Source of the DNA: a virus
Lineage: Duplodnaviria; Heunggongvirae; Uroviricota; Caudoviricetes
Direction: 5' to 3' (one strand)
Length of the DNA stretch: 6,181 nucleotides
IMG/VR virus record: IMGVR_UViG_2671180543_000005
Numbering within the stretch: position 1 is the stretch's first letter; each line of letters begins with the position of its first letter. Shown piece after piece: positions 1,054 to 6,102 of this stretch. Under the pieces are notes generated by a model. That model was not told the origin of the DNA and did no database searches. It saw only the letters and a program-made list of their open reading frames with translations. A program made the translations under genes and the position numbers.

Positions 1054-1683
1054 TCAGCCCCGGCTGGATCCAGTCATCAGGCTCTTTCTTAAAGGGGGAG
1101 TATTGAAATCACGAAGAAGAGCCTCCCGCACCGCAGCATCCATGTCTGCACCACTGGCAAGTGCTTCAATCTCTGCCGCCACCTGCAAATACCCCATGCA
1201 ACGGCCAATGCGTTTCATAACTCTGGTGTTTTCGTCTTTCAGGCATCTGATAGCGAGATTAATAATTTTCAGGCAGTGATGATGCGATGCCCGGACAGGT
1301 TTTCCGTTCTCATAAACGACGAACTCACCCTCTTCACAGGAAACCCTGAAAGGCCGATGGGGTTCCTGGTCTTTATCCGGTGCAGACGCAATAAAATCAC
1401 TTTTATGCTCTTCCTCTCCGGCACTGTTAACCGTAATGACGTACTCAGGCCGCAGGTAAGCCGCCTCTTTTTCTGACAATGCGGCCGGTAAAAACTTTTC
1501 CTGCAAAAACTTCATAAAAGTCTCGTGAGCGACTTTGTGGCAGTAATCGTAAATCGCCGCATAATGCTCATCGCGGCGTTTGTTTTCATCTTCAGAACTC
1601 ACCAACGCCGACAATTTTTTATTAAGCTCAGTGATTTCATTTTCCAGGTGATTGAATCGCTGATTCATTTCTTCATGCTTCAT
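1054..1683 (-). CDS. hypothetical protein (209 aa) between holin and endolysin; family not recognised
   Basis: Longest ORF in the interval. ATG at 1683-1681 lies 3 nt after the stop of the upstream holin copy, with GGGGAGAG 7-8 nt upstream. Predicted N-terminal coiled-coil-like segment (NQRFNHLENEITELNKKLSALV), acidic linker, and C-terminal region with clustered His/Cys (SHHHCLKIINLAIRCLK, GRCMG). No TM segment seen. Function unknown. Confidence 0.6.
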   Translation of the reverse strand: MKHEEMNQRFNHLENEITELNKKLSALVSSEDENKRRDEHYAAIYDYCHKVAHETFMKFLQEKFLPAALSEKEAAYLRPEYVITVNSAGEEEHKSDFIASAPDKDQEPHRPFRVSCEEGEFVVYENGKPVRASHHHCLKIINLAIRCLKDENTRVMKRIGRCMGYLQVAAEIEALASGADMDAAVREALLRDFNTPPLRKSLMTGSSRG

Positions 1684-1686
1684 TAT

Positions 1687-1872
1687 TTACTCTCCCCGTG
1701 CAGCCTTACGCTTGTCTTCTCTTATTTTGAAATACAGATTCGTCAGATAAGTCAGAAGCCCCAGAAGCAGACTTCCCAGCACACCAATCGCAGCCCACTG
1801 TGATGGCCTGACCTGATCCAACCACTGCAAAAACCAGTAGCCGGCACTGCCGGCGGAGGTGCCGTAGGCAAT
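1687..1872 (-). CDS. class II holin (S21-type pinholin), second diverged copy, 5-prime end missing in the N gap
   Basis: Translation [61 protein letters not shown] differs from the intact holin at 1896-2111 by 3 residues. About 16 nucleotide substitutions across roughly 170 aligned nt by eye. Start codon and first ~10 codons are absent because the sequence runs into N at 1873. Confidence 0.6.
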
Positions 1873-1882
1873 NNNNNNNNNN
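1873..1882. other. run of 10 N: assembly/scaffold gap, true length unknown
   Basis: Ten consecutive n characters. Flanking sequence cannot be joined across 10 nt to give an intact gene on either side. Confidence 0.95.
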
Positions 1883-1895
1883 AATGATGGCGACA

Positions 1896-2111
1896 TTATT
1901 CACCTCTCGCAGCCTTACGCTTGTCTTCTCTGATTTTGAAGTACAGATTTGTCAGATAAGTCAGGAAGCCCAGAACCAGACTCCCCAGTACACCAATCGC
2001 AGCCCACTGTGACGGACTGACCTGATCAAGCCACTGTAAAAACCAGTAGCCAGCACTGCCTGCGGAGGTGCCGTAGGCAATGCCCGTTGAAATTTTGTCC
2101 ATGGATTTCAT
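1896..2111 (-). CDS. S: class II holin / pinholin with dual-start motif (phage 21 S-like)
   Basis: 71 aa, [30 protein letters not shown]..., near-identical to phage 21 S / DLP12 EssD as recalled. Met1 and Met4 give the antiholin/holin dual start. Two predicted TM segments and a charged C-terminus. GGAGGTGA 5 nt upstream of the ATG at 2111. Confidence 0.9.
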
Positions 2112-2403: not shown

Positions 2404-2478
<75 letters not shown>

Positions 2479-2481
2479 ATA

Positions 2482-2557
<76 letters not shown>

Positions 2558-2559
2558 GC

Positions 2560-2636
2560 TGGCCCACCACCGAGGACTCGAACCTCGCACCGTCAACTTA
2601 GAAGGTTGATGCTCTATCCGGATGAGCTAGTGGTGG
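2560..2636 (-). tRNA. tRNA-Arg (anticodon UCU)
   Basis: 77-nt cloverleaf: acceptor CCACCAC/GUGGUGG, D-arm GCUC...GAGC, anticodon stem UCAAC/GUUGA, loop CUUCUAA, T-arm CGAGG-UUCGAGU-CCUCG, CCA encoded. Reads the rare AGA/AGG codons, like the argN/argO-type tRNAs of lambdoid prophages. Confidence 0.8.
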
Positions 2637-2637
2637 T

Positions 2638-2714
2638 TGGTGGCCCTTGCTGGACTTGAACCAGCGACCTGGCGATTATGAGTCGCTCGCTCTGACCAAC
2701 TGAGCTAAAGGGCC
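2638..2714 (-). tRNA. tRNA with CAU anticodon, ileX/ileZ-like (probably tRNA-Ile2, lysidine-modified; could be annotated tRNA-Met)
   Basis: 77-nt cloverleaf: acceptor GGCCCUU/AAGGGCC, anticodon loop CUCAUAA, T-arm GCUGG-UUCAAGU-CCAGC, CCA encoded. Overall sequence resembles E. coli ileX (tRNA-Ile2) as recalled. Confidence 0.75.
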
Positions 2715-2802
2715 GGAGGCAGAATAATAACCATATGTCATCACATCTGCAAACTCATCTGACCACCAGCGTGTTTAACGTCCTGTACCGTTTTTCAGGC
2801 AT

Positions 2803-2824
2803 AAAAAACCCGCCCGGAGGCGGG
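2803..2824 (-). terminator. intrinsic (Rho-independent) terminator, candidate tR-prime of the Q-dependent late transcript
   Basis: On the minus strand: 6-bp GC stem CCCGCC/GGCGGG (2809-2814 with 2819-2824), 4-nt loop, followed by UUUUUU (plus-strand A run 2803-2808). Lies about 90 nt downstream of the Q stop and just upstream of the tRNAs. Confidence 0.55.
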
Positions 2825-2827
2825 TTT

Positions 2828-2913
2828 AAGCTGTGTGGCGAAGCAACCACTCTTAACAGAATATCCCGTTTTTTACGTACGTAAAATATTTTCTAGAAAG
2901 TCGCCCCTTACCA
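2828..2913 (-). promoter_or_regulatory. expected position of the Q-dependent late promoter (pR-prime) and Q-utilisation site; exact -35/-10 not resolved
   Basis: Placed by synteny only: between the Q stop at 2914 and the terminator hairpin. AT-rich, with weak candidate hexamers (TTTTAC, 17 nt, TATTCT on the minus strand). No confident sigma-70 match by eye. Confidence 0.3.
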
Positions 2914-3294
2914 TCAGGGATGTTCAATATATTTGTCCATTTCTAACCGGACACCCAACATCATCAACATTCCTTCCACCACCCCCTCGGCTTTTTGTAG
3001 CTTCTTTCCTATATAACCATCTGAGCATCCATGCTTCCGCGCCAGCGTCATGAATGTCATCCCAAACACGTAGTAGTCAACCAGCAAGTCATGTAGATCG
3101 TTGTTGTTCCGGTTAAGGCGGGCCATACACCCACATATAACCATCGCGTCATCGTCACAGCATTGCGGGCGGGATTTTACTTTTGAAGGGATTAATCCCT
3201 TAAAACCGGCAGCAATGGACGACCAGGTCACATCCTCATGATTATTAGCCACCCACGCGCCCCAGCGCTCAAGAACCTGCTGAATATCACGCAT
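2914..3294 (-). CDS. Q: late-gene antiterminator Q (phage 82 / DLP12 QuuD-like)
   Basis: From [34 protein letters not shown]... the protein closely matches DLP12 QuuD as recalled. Cys cluster [14 protein letters not shown] fits the Q zinc-binding motif. Start placed at the ATG at 3294; the track start at 3330 is a TTG. The 5-prime end overlaps the ninH stop by 8 nt. Confidence 0.85.
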
Positions 3295-3487
3295 CACTGT
3301 CTTTACCCCTGTCCCATCCACGATGAACAATCAGAACACCATCAACAATGGCGTGCCCTTTGCCCTCTTTATCTTCAGCATATTTTCTTACCGTGGCGCG
3401 ATTACAGTTCAGCATTCGTGAAACTTCGGTCATATTACCTCGTGTCTGGATAAGCAGTTCCGGTATCGTTTGAATTTTGACGCTCAT
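3287..3487 (-). CDS. ninH: NinH-like small DNA-binding protein
   Basis: [58 protein letters not shown] resembles lambda NinH as recalled. ATG at 3487 with GGAGAG 6 nt upstream. Sits immediately upstream of Q, as in lambda. Confidence 0.8.
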
Positions 3488-3581
3488 CAAATACTCTCCG
3501 GTTCGGTGATTTTTATCCCGGGCTTTCCACCAGGGACATAATGATCGCGCACAAGCCAGGGCAAAACAAACTCATGGCGCA

Positions 3582-3839
3582 TCAGCGCAGCGCCTCCTGC
3601 ACCAGTTTTTCAAACTTTCCGACTCTGGTTTCCAGCTCTGCCACACAGTCCACCAGCTCATCTACTGCTTTCTGTGCGCGATGCTTCGCCTGCATCAGTT
3701 CCCGAAGCGCGGGTACCATATCTTTACGGATAGCATCTTTTGTTATGCCCGTTTTTTCGAGTTGTTCAGCATGACGCAGCATTTCCTGCGCGTGTTTACG
3801 CAATTGTTCAGGGGTAAAAGTCATTGTCTGGTTGTTCAA
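3582..3839 (-). CDS. hypothetical small helical protein (80-85 aa), nin-region ORF of unknown function
   Basis: ORF immediately after the helicase. A TTG at 3839 overlaps the helicase stop (TTGA) with GGAG 7 nt upstream. The first ATG is at 3824 (80 aa) with no obvious SD, so the start is ambiguous. Predicted all-helical and highly charged. No family recognised. Confidence 0.5.
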   Translation of the reverse strand: MNNQTMTFTPEQLRKHAQEMLRHAEQLEKTGITKDAIRKDMVPALRELMQAKHRAQKAVDELVDCVAELETRVGKFEKLVQEALR

Positions 3840-5227
3840 AAGAAACGCTCCATCTTACTGCTGTCAGTTCGTTTATTACTGTATCTGCGCGGATTGCCGG
3901 GCTTCATGGGAGTGGAAAGCACCCGTGCACTTTCCTGGTCCACAGGCAGAAAATGTCCGTTATAAAAACGCCGGTAAATCGTTCCCAGAGAACCGTTACG
4001 TTGTTTCGTGATATTGATTTCTGCGATGCCCCTGGCCTGCGTATCCGGGTTGTACACTTCATCCCTGTAAAGCATCAGAATGATGTCTGCATCCGCCTCT
4101 ATTTCTCCGGAATTTTTCAGGTCTGAGTTCATGGGACGTTTATTGGGTCTGGACTCCACACCGCGGGAGAGCTGGCTCAGCGCAATCAACGGAAAACCAC
4201 CGGATTTTGCCAGGCCTTTAAGCCCCTTTGAGATTTCACCCACGGCAAGGTCATGACGCCCCGTGGTTCGGTTTTTTATCAGCCCGAGATAATCAACCAC
4301 CACCAGCGCCGTTTCCGGATATTTAATCAGGTGGTGTTTCGTTGTTGCGCATATCTCATCAATGGCCAGGTTCGCCTGGTCCACCATCCAGATATTGCGC
4401 CCGGTCATCCGCCCCACCCCTTGTGAGAAACGCGTCCAGTCTTCATCTTCAAAGTGAGCCACAGATTTCAGGCGTGATACTGGCATCCCTCCAGCCGCAG
4501 ACACCATACGTTCACCAATCTGGATGTTCGCCATCTCCATGGTGAACAGAAGCACACCATGCCCCTGCTCAGTCACCTTGTCGATGATGTCCAGCGCAAG
4601 TTCGGTTTTCCCCATCGAAGGACGGGCGGCAATGAATACCAGGTCTCCGGGCTCCATACCGCCTGTTTTTGCGTCCAGTTCATCAATACCGGTCATCAAC
4701 GTCCTGGATTTCTCCAGCCCCTGATTCCGGCATTCAACACGCTCAACCACTTCCGGAAGCACATCATCAATATGTACCGGCTGAATGACGCCCTTTCCTG
4801 TCGACAGTGTGACCATCATGTTCTGCGCATCCTTCAGGGCATCTTCAGCTGCTTCACAGGTATGCGCATCACGTAATTTCTGCAGCGCCTCATTCAGTGT
4901 TTTTTCTGCATCGCGCAGTGCGGCATTGCGCCGCAACGCTGCAACATAGTGCTCCAGTGAAGACTTCACCCAGGTTTTACGCCCGGTATCAGTAATCACC
5001 GGGGCAAGTTCCGGCATCTCATTACACAACAGCACGGGGTCAATCACTCCTGAAACACGGGCCTGTCTGCAGATGCCTGTATAGATATCCTGATACGCTC
5101 GTACAGAAAAAACGTCCGCTGGCAGTGTGGCCAGAATATCCATCACTTCAGGATCTGCTCCGCGCAGAAAGAACGCGCCGATGACAGCGCCTTCAAGGTC
5201 ATCGTTACGCCATACTGGAGTTGTCAT
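3836..5227 (-). CDS. DnaB-family replicative DNA helicase (phage-encoded)
   Basis: 463 aa. Walker A AARPSMGKT, Walker B-like VVVDYLGLI, and the DnaB C-terminal block SQLSRGVESRPNKRPMNSDLKNSGEIEADADIILMLYRDEVY. ATG at 5227 overlaps the loader stop (ATGA), with GAGGTG 9 nt upstream. Confidence 0.9.
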   Translation of the reverse strand: MTTPVWRNDDLEGAVIGAFFLRGADPEVMDILATLPADVFSVRAYQDIYTGICRQARVSGVIDPVLLCNEMPELAPVITDTGRKTWVKSSLEHYVAALRRNAALRDAEKTLNEALQKLRDAHTCEAAEDALKDAQNMMVTLSTGKGVIQPVHIDDVLPEVVERVECRNQGLEKSRTLMTGIDELDAKTGGMEPGDLVFIAARPSMGKTELALDIIDKVTEQGHGVLLFTMEMANIQIGERMVSAAGGMPVSRLKSVAHFEDEDWTRFSQGVGRMTGRNIWMVDQANLAIDEICATTKHHLIKYPETALVVVDYLGLIKNRTTGRHDLAVGEISKGLKGLAKSGGFPLIALSQLSRGVESRPNKRPMNSDLKNSGEIEADADIILMLYRDEVYNPDTQARGIAEINITKQRNGSLGTIYRRFYNGHFLPVDQESARVLSTPMKPGNPRRYSNKRTDSSKMERFF

Positions 5228-6102
5228 GCAGCCACACCTCTGATACGAGAACGGTAACTGGGCCAGTTAAACGACAACCAGTTGCGTCCCCCGTCTGTGA
5301 TCCTGTCGGCAATTCGGGGACTGATGAACGCCCACAACTCTTCCGGTGAGAGGTTACTGATCAGAATGGTGGGCAAGATACTTTCGTACCTGGCGTTGAT
5401 AATTTCCTGCAAAATAGCCATTTCAGCCGCGCTGCCAAACTGAACGCCAACTTCGTCGATGATCAGCAAATCCATTGACGCATAACGCTCAATAACTTCA
5501 TCCGCTGTTTTTTCGCTGTCATTCCGCCAGCAATTTTTCACAGCACGGGTAAGGCGCATCACGTCGGTGATCTCCACACTGGCCAGATAGTTACGGATGA
5601 TGTGTTTTGCCATAGCCACAGCCAGATGATTTTTTCCGGTACCACAACTGCCGGTCATAACAAGACTGGTACCGTTCTCCAGCATATCTGGCCAGTTCTC
5701 CGCATAGCGGCGACAGGCCGCAAGATTTCTGGCTGCGCCAGGATTAACCTCCAGATAATTATCAAACTCGCAGTCCCGAAAACGCAGGGCAATTCCGGCG
5801 TTATCAGTCAGCTCTTCCGCCTTGATGGACGACAGCTCCATGGTCAAATCGTTGGCCTCAGCGATTAAGCAGTCAGGGCAGCATGAAATTTCTTCTCTGT
5901 CCTCGCCATTACGATCGCTCCACACCAGTATATGCGTGTGATATTCGCCATGTTTTTCGCAATATCCGCGACCTTCACGCATCAGGCAGGAACGATAAGG
6001 CCATGGCTTTTCGCCCTTCTGAGCAAATGCAATCTCTGCCCGTAACTCATCCATTCGCGCCTGTAGTCTTTTTTGTTGTTCACGCAGGTTAAACGTCATC
6101 AT
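5224..6102 (-). CDS. DnaC-like helicase loader (AAA+ ATPase) with N-terminal Cys/His cluster
   Basis: Walker A TGSCGTGKNHLAVAMA, Walker B DLLIIDEVGVQ, and C-terminal FNWPSYRSRIRG matching the E. coli DnaC C-terminus as recalled. Start placed at the ATG-ATG at 6102 with GAGGTGA 6 nt upstream; the track start at 6171 is a GTG in an open frame. N-terminal region has a C-x3-H...CC-x2-C cluster. Confidence 0.85.
   Translation of the reverse strand: MMTFNLREQQKRLQARMDELRAEIAFAQKGEKPWPYRSCLMREGRGYCEKHGEYHTHILVWSDRNGEDREEISCCPDCLIAEANDLTMELSSIKAEELTDNAGIALRFRDCEFDNYLEVNPGAARNLAACRRYAENWPDMLENGTSLVMTGSCGTGKNHLAVAMAKHIIRNYLASVEITDVMRLTRAVKNCWRNDSEKTADEVIERYASMDLLIIDEVGVQFGSAAEMAILQEIINARYESILPTILISNLSPEELWAFISPRIADRITDGGRNWLSFNWPSYRSRIRGVAA

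Follow-up and report, generated by a model that had tools for sequence, protein, structure and literature searches.

The 85-codon open reading frame (ORF) directly behind the helicase gene in the 6,181-nt window (the whole stretch of DNA that was analysed) is a genuine, well-conserved gene under purifying selection, and its product corresponds to the C-terminal helix of longer Enterobacterales phage proteins, here encoded on its own. In this phiP27-like prophage of E. coli the ORF lies at the delayed-early position. Comparison with related prophages also shows that the short gap behind it, previously taken for a spacer, is what a deletion has left of a rusA gene. Every gene in the window is encoded on the minus strand, in the following order:

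6102..5224, minus strand: DnaC/IstB-like loader, with its start as in RefSeq.
5227..3836, minus strand: DnaB-type replicative helicase of 463 aa (PF03796, E 2.6e-72; phrog_19).
3851-3848, minus strand: GGAG Shine-Dalgarno motif, read from the sequence, 8 nt upstream of TTG-3839.
3839..3582, minus strand: 85-codon ORF, gene of a predicted coiled-coil protein (phrog_2565, E 2.7e-32; dN/dS; AlphaFold2).
3593..3598, minus strand: AGGAGG inside the final codons of the 85-aa gene; the next ATG follows 10 nt downstream.
3581..3488, minus strand: 94-nt gap between the 85-aa ORF and ninH, taken up by the rusA remnant.
3582..3487, minus strand: rusA remnant, a 31-codon in-frame ORF recognised by alignment to the 5' and 3' ends of rusA.
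3575..3513, minus strand: 20-codon hydrophobic mini-ORF (MSLFCPGLCAIIMSLVESPG), in another frame of the rusA remnant.
3487..3287, minus strand: ninH, 66 aa from ATG-3487 (PF06322, E 3.6e-26; RefSeq 'protein ninH').
3294..2914, minus strand: antiterminator Q, 126 aa (PF06530, E 4.2e-54; phrog_79; RefSeq).
2404..2714, minus strand: four tRNA genes, downstream of Q.
Downstream of the tRNA genes, minus strand: P21-type lysis cassette, from profile matches.

The ninH product belongs to its family by a wide score (91.3 bits against a gathering cut-off of 29.8 for PF06322), and the ninH and Q genes overlap by 8 nt. From the helicase stop to the Q start the interval measures 541 nt (3835..3295); the preliminary description gave roughly 900 bp, a length approached (about 920 bp) only when Q itself is counted. 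Its picture of a minimal nin region holds, with the 85-codon ORF and ninH as the only intact genes between helicase and Q, as does its comparison with lambda, where ren and ninB-ninI lie between P and Q. This reduced layout is typical of phiP27-like phages and not peculiar to the window. E. coli O121 strain 201805972 carries a prophage that matches the 801 nt around the ORF at 100% identity; there RefSeq annotates the same genes, naming the helicase 'replicative DNA helicase' and the ORF product WP_001064799.1, a 'hypothetical protein' with the same TTG start as here. Scans of positions 2800-4100 returned no promoter-like site, and no terminator in the ORF or the gap; two weak terminator-like sites both fall inside ninH. 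An Rfam scan of the window found the four tRNAs only, with nothing in the ORF or the gap. Overall, the locus is a case of ordinary lambdoid-prophage mosaicism and no new kind of system.

Several features of the flanking regions were recorded along the way. Upstream of the window genes in the O121 prophage, the initiator position of the replication module is filled by a gene (5980-6888 of locus L001) annotated as 'LvrA C-terminal domain-related protein' and not as a lambda O homologue, an unusual name for that position. The tRNAs at 2404-2714 are Gly-TCC, Thr-TGT, Arg-TCT and one with a CAT anticodon (Ile in RefSeq, Met according to ARAGORN). In Stx phages, tRNAs and toxin genes occupy the position downstream of Q; no stx gene is present in this window. 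Further downstream, a run of 10 N at 1872-1881 lies within tandem P21-type holin genes (1687-2111, minus strand); the Ns break up the second copy and leave the first (2111..1896, 71 aa) whole. The run looks like a scaffold join between two contigs. IS911 follows the holin in the complete O121 relative, and the part of the window below about 1870 may belong to another prophage or lie beyond an IS element. Between the holin and lysozyme genes, a 209-aa ORF (1054-1683, minus strand) with no Pfam match is an uncharacterised insert in the lysis cassette.

Alleles of the 85-codon ORF were taken from 72 fetched loci, which yielded 36 unique alleles, 33 of them close. None of the 36 contains an internal stop, and among the 33 close unique alleles the polymorphic sites were distributed over codon positions 1/2/3 as 11/8/50. 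The dN/dS ratio was 0.04 against the phiP27 copy and 0.07 against the O103 prophage copy; it rose to 0.14-0.19 for the copies in Stx2 phages, Klebsiella and Hafnia, whose proteins are 54-69% identical. Because dN/dS is low and polymorphism is in excess at third positions, we judge the ORF to be a real gene. DNA matching the helicase 3' end plus the ORF was found in 321 of 5426 complete E. coli genomes, and homologues of the protein fall into 189 clusters at 90% identity, some of them present on 1000 or more contigs. A lack of conservation in related prophages, which had been named as a ground for dropping the ORF, was thus not what we found: the ORF is strongly conserved there, and at the protein level similarity extends down to 30% identity across genera. 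The opposite reading, in which the ORF is a non-functional relic kept for the ribosome-binding sites and the junction that the downstream gene needs, draws on the fact that both ends overlap neighbours and that the last codons hold the AGGAGG of the next gene. We rejected it on dN/dS, which stays at 0.04-0.19 along the whole length; the codon-position counts, the open frame in all 36 unique alleles and the conservation of the protein across genera also count against it, and it is very improbable.

The ORF begins inside the helicase gene, whose last codons hold the GGAG ribosome-binding site and overlap the ORF start, and its TTG shares 4 nt (TTGA) with the helicase stop. Since an alternative in-frame ATG lies at 3824, the preliminary description had called for a decision between TTG-3839 and ATG-3824, and the comparative data favour the former. 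TTG with GGAGCG upstream is present in 72 of 72 close copies. The 68%-identical allele of Stx2 phages keeps both TTG and GGAGCG and has neither an ATG at codon 6 nor any other internal ATG, the copy in Hafnia phage yong2 starts with GTG after GGAGG, and a Klebsiella relative has ATG where the window ORF has TTG; in all three the 4-nt overlap with the upstream stop recurs. Because starts, GGAG and overlap agree across these relatives, TTG-3839 is better supported than ATG-3824. The N-terminal eight residues themselves are not conserved, and the conserved domain begins at T9-P10-E11.

At the other end, the ORF stop overlaps the next ATG (TGATG), a junction seen in 72 of 72 copies whether rusA or Q comes next, and the AGGAGG at 3593..3598 would likely be the ribosome-binding site of whichever gene follows. 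These start and stop overlaps with both neighbours suggest translational coupling. The DNA resembles that of phiP27, Stx1a phages and the O103 prophage across the end of the helicase gene and as far as the ORF stop codon, where the similarity breaks off. We also observed that CGCTGATGCG at the ORF 3' end (3582-3584 / 3580-3582; loci L002, L003 and L016-L095) is unchanged before either rusA (MRHE...) or Q (MRDI...); it looks like a short conserved junction for module exchange. Separately, a second locus in each of E. coli ECMA0423 and Shigella flexneri SFBU1023 (L014 and L015) carries a truncated ORF covering residues 40-85 at 96% identity, followed by an apparently full-length rusA, which suggests another rearrangement at this place, in a decayed prophage.

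The gap between the ORF and ninH had been described as a neutral spacer of about 90 bp; alignment leads to another reading of its 94 nt. In the O103 prophage the same ORF is directly followed by rusA, and the beginning of that gene (MRHEFILPYPP...) is matched by the first 28 nt of the gap; the last ~50 nt together with ninH match the rusA 3' end plus ninH in hundreds of E. coli prophages. Aligned to rusA, the gap carries a 264-nt internal deletion (~88 codons) that is in frame, with its junction near 3555/3554, so that the remnant peptide reads MRHEFVLPW joined to LVRDHYVPGGKPGIKITEPESI. The 'spacer' is a rusA pseudogene that has lost an internal segment in frame; it keeps ~9 first and ~22 last rusA codons and TGATG overlaps on both sides. 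A full-length RusA of ~120 aa with its acidic core was not found here: only the termini are present, and the RRRDLDN...DD region falls within the deletion. The 31-codon ORF thus shares with the RusA Holliday-junction resolvase its termini and its overlaps with the neighbours, whereas the acidic core is missing, and because ~88 codons including that conserved core are gone the remnant cannot be an active resolvase. When a full-length parent was sought, nothing closer than ~87% identity for the 3' part was found. The deleted-rusA arrangement occurs at 99% identity or more in 9 of 5426 complete genomes.

The 20-codon hydrophobic mini-ORF at 3575..3513, to which the preliminary description had drawn attention, is present as stated. 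We rejected it as a gene: it is an out-of-frame read of the rusA remnant, has no family match and is judged spurious.

The ORF product is a protein of ~10 kDa with 15 K+R and 14 D+E, in agreement with its earlier characterisation as charged and all-helical. Residues 2-83 match phrog_2565 (E 2.7e-32) and phrog_2539 (E 1.4e-17), both uncharacterised, and the expectation that the ORF lies outside characterised families is borne out by these being its only families. The same PHROGs include phiP27 L20 (NP_543072), gp10 of Shigella phage 75/02 Stx and Lys8385Vzw_52; the phiP27 copy is 93% identical to the window protein and sits in the same place after the helicase. The alignments cover only the C-terminal part of each family (121-202 of 204 for phrog_2565, 153-227 of 229 for phrog_2539). 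The full-length architecture of PHROGs 2565 and 2539, a winged helix with or without a zinc ribbon and then the helix, was not found in the window protein, which has the C-terminal domain only, and the DNA upstream of the ORF is the end of the helicase gene.

Other searches placed the protein in no further family. Scans against Pfam, NCBIfam and PADLOC gave only sub-threshold matches to unrelated helical families (for PADLOC, which covers defence systems, the best E was 0.0028), and a Pfam scan of 28 family members revealed no common family. Sequence searches of the PDB, whether started from the single sequence or from the family profile, returned designed helical bundles and chance helical matches only, and a Foldseek search with the single-helix model gave no match, which is unsurprising for a lone helix. 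Literature searches turned up no paper on the 85-aa protein, whether by accession number, PHROG id or phiP27 context. Among 1.84 billion cluster representatives, only 33 clusters reached E up to 0.001, the few weakest being unrelated repetitive proteins; the genuine members comprise short forms of 80-93 aa and long forms of 133-265 aa with the domain at the C-terminus. A genome-collection scan with a narrow alignment retrieved loci of E. coli, Shigella and Klebsiella only, and a further homologue search with the domain profile retrieved close E. coli copies only, with no informative fusions.

AlphaFold2, run on a 28-sequence alignment as a monomer model, predicted one continuous helix over residues 10-84 (mean pLDDT 85, pTM 0.47). 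Conserved hydrophobic residues are spaced by 3-4 along an N-terminal stretch (positions 13, 17, 20, 24 and 27) and recur along a C-terminal stretch (37, 41, 44, 48, 51, 55, 59, 62, 66, 69, 73, 76, 79 and 83), with a variable segment at about 29-36. The model thus predicts one long amphipathic helix with a heptad pattern, and the combination of a continuous helix with hydrophobic residues at heptad positions a and d is, as a prediction, that of a coiled coil. K39, P43 and D64 are invariant, A24, L41 and D60 nearly so, and E11, R14, E25, E28, E47 and Q50 are strongly conserved. Given that the invariant P43 lies inside the predicted helix, the protein may in reality fold as a hairpin or as a helix with a kink.

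Long forms were found in Serratia, Klebsiella, Citrobacter, Enterobacter, Salmonella, Yersinia, Pectobacterium, Providencia and Morganella, all annotated as hypothetical proteins. Their C-terminal domain is 30-57% identical to the short forms, with the same invariant residues, and the invariant or near-invariant polar residues are common to both. Some longer members carry a CxxC...CxxC zinc ribbon besides the N-terminal winged helix; the window protein has neither element. For one of them (P0147, 240 aa) the model shows a winged helix at 8-80, a zinc ribbon at 97-135, a disordered linker and a helix at 169-237, and Foldseek matched the N-terminal part to winged helices of PadR, Fur and RTP type with probabilities of 0.9-0.99 and E values of only 0.03-0.3. 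PadR/LmrR, B. subtilis RTP and Fur/Zur combine a winged helix with a C-terminal dimerisation helix, and the long forms are modelled alike; the likeness is weak at these E values, comes with no sequence similarity and does not extend to the 85-aa protein, which has no winged helix. Each of 34 phage records (34/34) has exactly one copy, short or long, which suggests that both forms take one and the same place in these genomes.

Dimeric DNA-binding regulators are usually laid out as a winged helix with a helix at the C-terminus that serves dimerisation only. This layout invites the idea that the free coiled coil acts as a decoy, inactivating the long winged-helix members of competing or co-resident phages by forming mixed oligomers. 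The shared C-terminal domain with its identical invariant residues and the PadR- and RTP-like layout of the long forms would fit such a role; however, no phage among the 34 records carries both forms, and specific cross-pairing at 30-40% identity is doubtful. We regard the decoy as improbable.

The positions of the gene across the family bear on its function. Among E. coli copies of at least 89% identity for which upstream DNA is present, all lie directly after DnaB and overlap its stop by 4 nt. Downstream, the commonest next gene is Q directly, in several alleles 44-87% identical to the window Q, and phiP27 has the same order; a sibling prophage with a 99.3%-identical ORF also has Q directly next. 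Other orders are rusA then Q, rusA then DUF1133, and the window's own deleted rusA, ninH and Q, while Stx2 phages carry a 68%-identical ORF allele after a 93%-identical helicase, followed by DUF968 and Q. Beyond these, the contexts of the family, sampled by hand for adjacency, were as follows:

Klebsiella short form: after an HTH_36/DnaD_N/Phg_2220_C protein, before Dam.
Hafnia yong2 short form: after Phg_2220_C, PerC and a hypothetical protein, before Dam, RusA, DUF968 and an antitermination protein.
P0127, P0131 and P0142 short forms: after Phage_GPA, before DUF968 and Q (preceded by ANT in P0142).
P0133 short form: after a lambda P-like gene, several genes and DUF551, before Q.
P0137 short form: after Rep_O, DnaB and a 254-aa protein, before a 74-aa protein and then Q.
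P0136 short form: after a methyltransferase gene, before DnaB, with a gap of ~1.1 kb.
P0134 short form: after an unannotated 122-aa ORF that follows the repressor gene and is presumably N-like, before gp17 and Kil.
Long forms of 171-173 aa (Salmonella, E. coli): after KilA-N, before DUF968 and then an antiterminator.
P0124 long form of 196 aa: after an HTH_36 replication protein, before a 188-aa protein.
Long forms of 198-244 aa, in the pL operon: 0-3 nt after N, before other pL-operon genes.

The N gene in front of the 198-244-aa forms was recognised as N_peptide (PF25694) or, in phage 75/02 Stx, as an arginine-rich N-like ORF. The latter (L005, 3188-3532) is an unannotated ORF of 114 codons with the arginine-rich N-like motif AASRRRAHRAE; it ends directly before gp10, a long-form member, and is probably the unannotated N gene of 75/02 Stx.

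Across the family, the gene is thus found either directly after N or between the replication genes and Q, there in combination with at least four replication systems, and the family is an early-operon accessory gene that is not tied to one replication or antitermination system. This bears directly on the possibility that the protein serves the phage DnaB helicase as accessory subunit or regulator and is co-produced with it by translational coupling. Within E. coli the arrangement would agree with a cofactor, given the 4-nt overlap with the helicase stop in every copy of at least 89% identity and the DNA similarity with phiP27, Stx1a phages and O103 that continues through the helicase end to the ORF stop. 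However, relatives follow non-helicase Phg_2220_C/DnaD-like and P2 gpA-like proteins, others are found several genes after a lambda P-like gene, in front of DnaB or behind N, and 93%-identical helicases pair with 68%-identical ORF alleles, showing no co-evolution; the family as a whole does not co-occur consistently with a DnaB-type helicase. We rejected the helicase-cofactor idea, which the family contexts contradict and which is improbable. Of the coupling to the helicase proposed earlier, the TTG overlap (TTGA) and the GGAG 8 nt upstream stand, but the link is positional and not functional, because relatives follow DnaD/Phg_2220_C, P2 gpA or lambda P-type genes or N.

In lambda, the positional analogue is Ren, an accessory protein of the early right operon whose gene is the first small gene after P and overlaps the P stop by 4 nt. 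Ren and the family have no sequence relation (hhalign probability 0.2%; hmmsearch E 0.87). Homology to a characterised nin protein, which would have made the ORF less remarkable, was likewise not detected: searched against every lambda P-to-Q protein (Ren and NinB-NinI), the family profile reached E 0.15 at best, and there was no Pfam nin match.

The downstream neighbours could hint at a phage partner instead. The gene lies upstream of DUF968, in five or more divergent lineages, or of rusA, an adjacency that could point to the protein being a partner of the adjoining DUF968 (YdfU-like, HNH-related) protein or of RusA, for example as an adaptor in DNA-junction processing. It is directly upstream of DUF968 in E. 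coli Stx2 phages, in two gpA-type phages and in the 171-173-aa long forms, one to three genes upstream of it in two further lineages, and directly upstream of rusA elsewhere. Yet in many phiP27-type phages the ORF abuts Q with neither gene between them, the window has only a dead rusA, and the pL-operon members are far from any such gene. We consider a partnership of this kind unlikely.

The two recurrent positions, first after N and the nin region, are accessory hotspots of early operons, and the earlier suggestion of a candidate host-interaction or anti-defence factor would fit them. In the strict anti-defence form the protein would inhibit a bacterial immune system, like Ral, Gam and Ocr. 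The ral gene lies directly after N in lambda and P22, which is also the place of the long pL-operon members of the family. In addition, the zinc-ribbon part of the long forms matches a PHROG annotated as Lar-like restriction alleviation (E 1e-9). That match, however, falls in a segment absent from the 85-aa protein, PHROGs of endonuclease VII and HNH type match this segment just as well, and Pfam gives no support; the likeness to Rac Lar is that of a generic zinc ribbon. The anti-defence reading, which is a special case of the explanation we prefer, has only a small chance of being right in its strict form.

Taken together, these results lead us to favour, tentatively and at somewhat less than an even chance for the whole, an explanation in which a genuine, coupled gene encodes a coiled-coil oligomer with a partner that is likelier to come from the host, beside a dead rusA. 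Translation of the 85-aa ORF would be coupled to that of the helicase through the TTGA overlap and the upstream GGAG, and the 3' end of the ORF would hand ribosomes on to the next gene through AGGAGG and the TGATG overlap. The protein would consist of amphipathic heptad helices, a short one at ~10-29 and a long one at ~37-84 with the variable segment between them, and would act as an oligomeric coiled coil, with a conserved polar surface (E11, R14, E25, E28, K39, P43, D60 and D64) as its contact site for a partner protein. Because the family sits behind four replication systems and several antiterminator types, this partner would more likely be a conserved host component than a phage-specific one. 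An activity as an enzyme or a DNA binder is unlikely for the 85-aa protein. Against this explanation counts the point that, if the helix merely dimerises, as in the regulators named above, its free-standing form would have no obvious activity, and so does the recurrent adjacency to DUF968 or rusA, with its hint at a phage partner.

A more far-reaching version can be formulated from the fact that the family lies directly after N, or else directly or one to a few genes before Q. Here the C-terminal helix would be the effector module of a group of undescribed early lambdoid proteins and would bind a conserved host protein, with a candidate role in transcription elongation, DNA-junction processing or immunity, and phiP27-like phages in which the region has shrunk to this single gene would keep it because they need it. 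We offer this as a speculative idea that will most probably prove wrong.

It is important to note what was already known, namely the RefSeq annotation and the PHROG clustering, and that the protein is one of thousands of conserved hypothetical phage proteins. New here are the domain relation to the winged-helix forms, the two recurrent positions in the nin region and directly after N, the support for the TTG start and the rereading of the gap as a rusA pseudogene; as a practical correction, the hydrophobic mini-ORF is not worth pursuing. Many phiP27-like prophages, including Stx1a-, Stx2e- and related Stx-converting ones of pathogenic E. coli, keep only the 85-aa gene between helicase and Q, and the family spans Enterobacterales phages with unrelated replication systems. 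This persistence, together with strong purifying selection, makes the 85-aa gene a reasonable target in the search for a new phage-host interaction.
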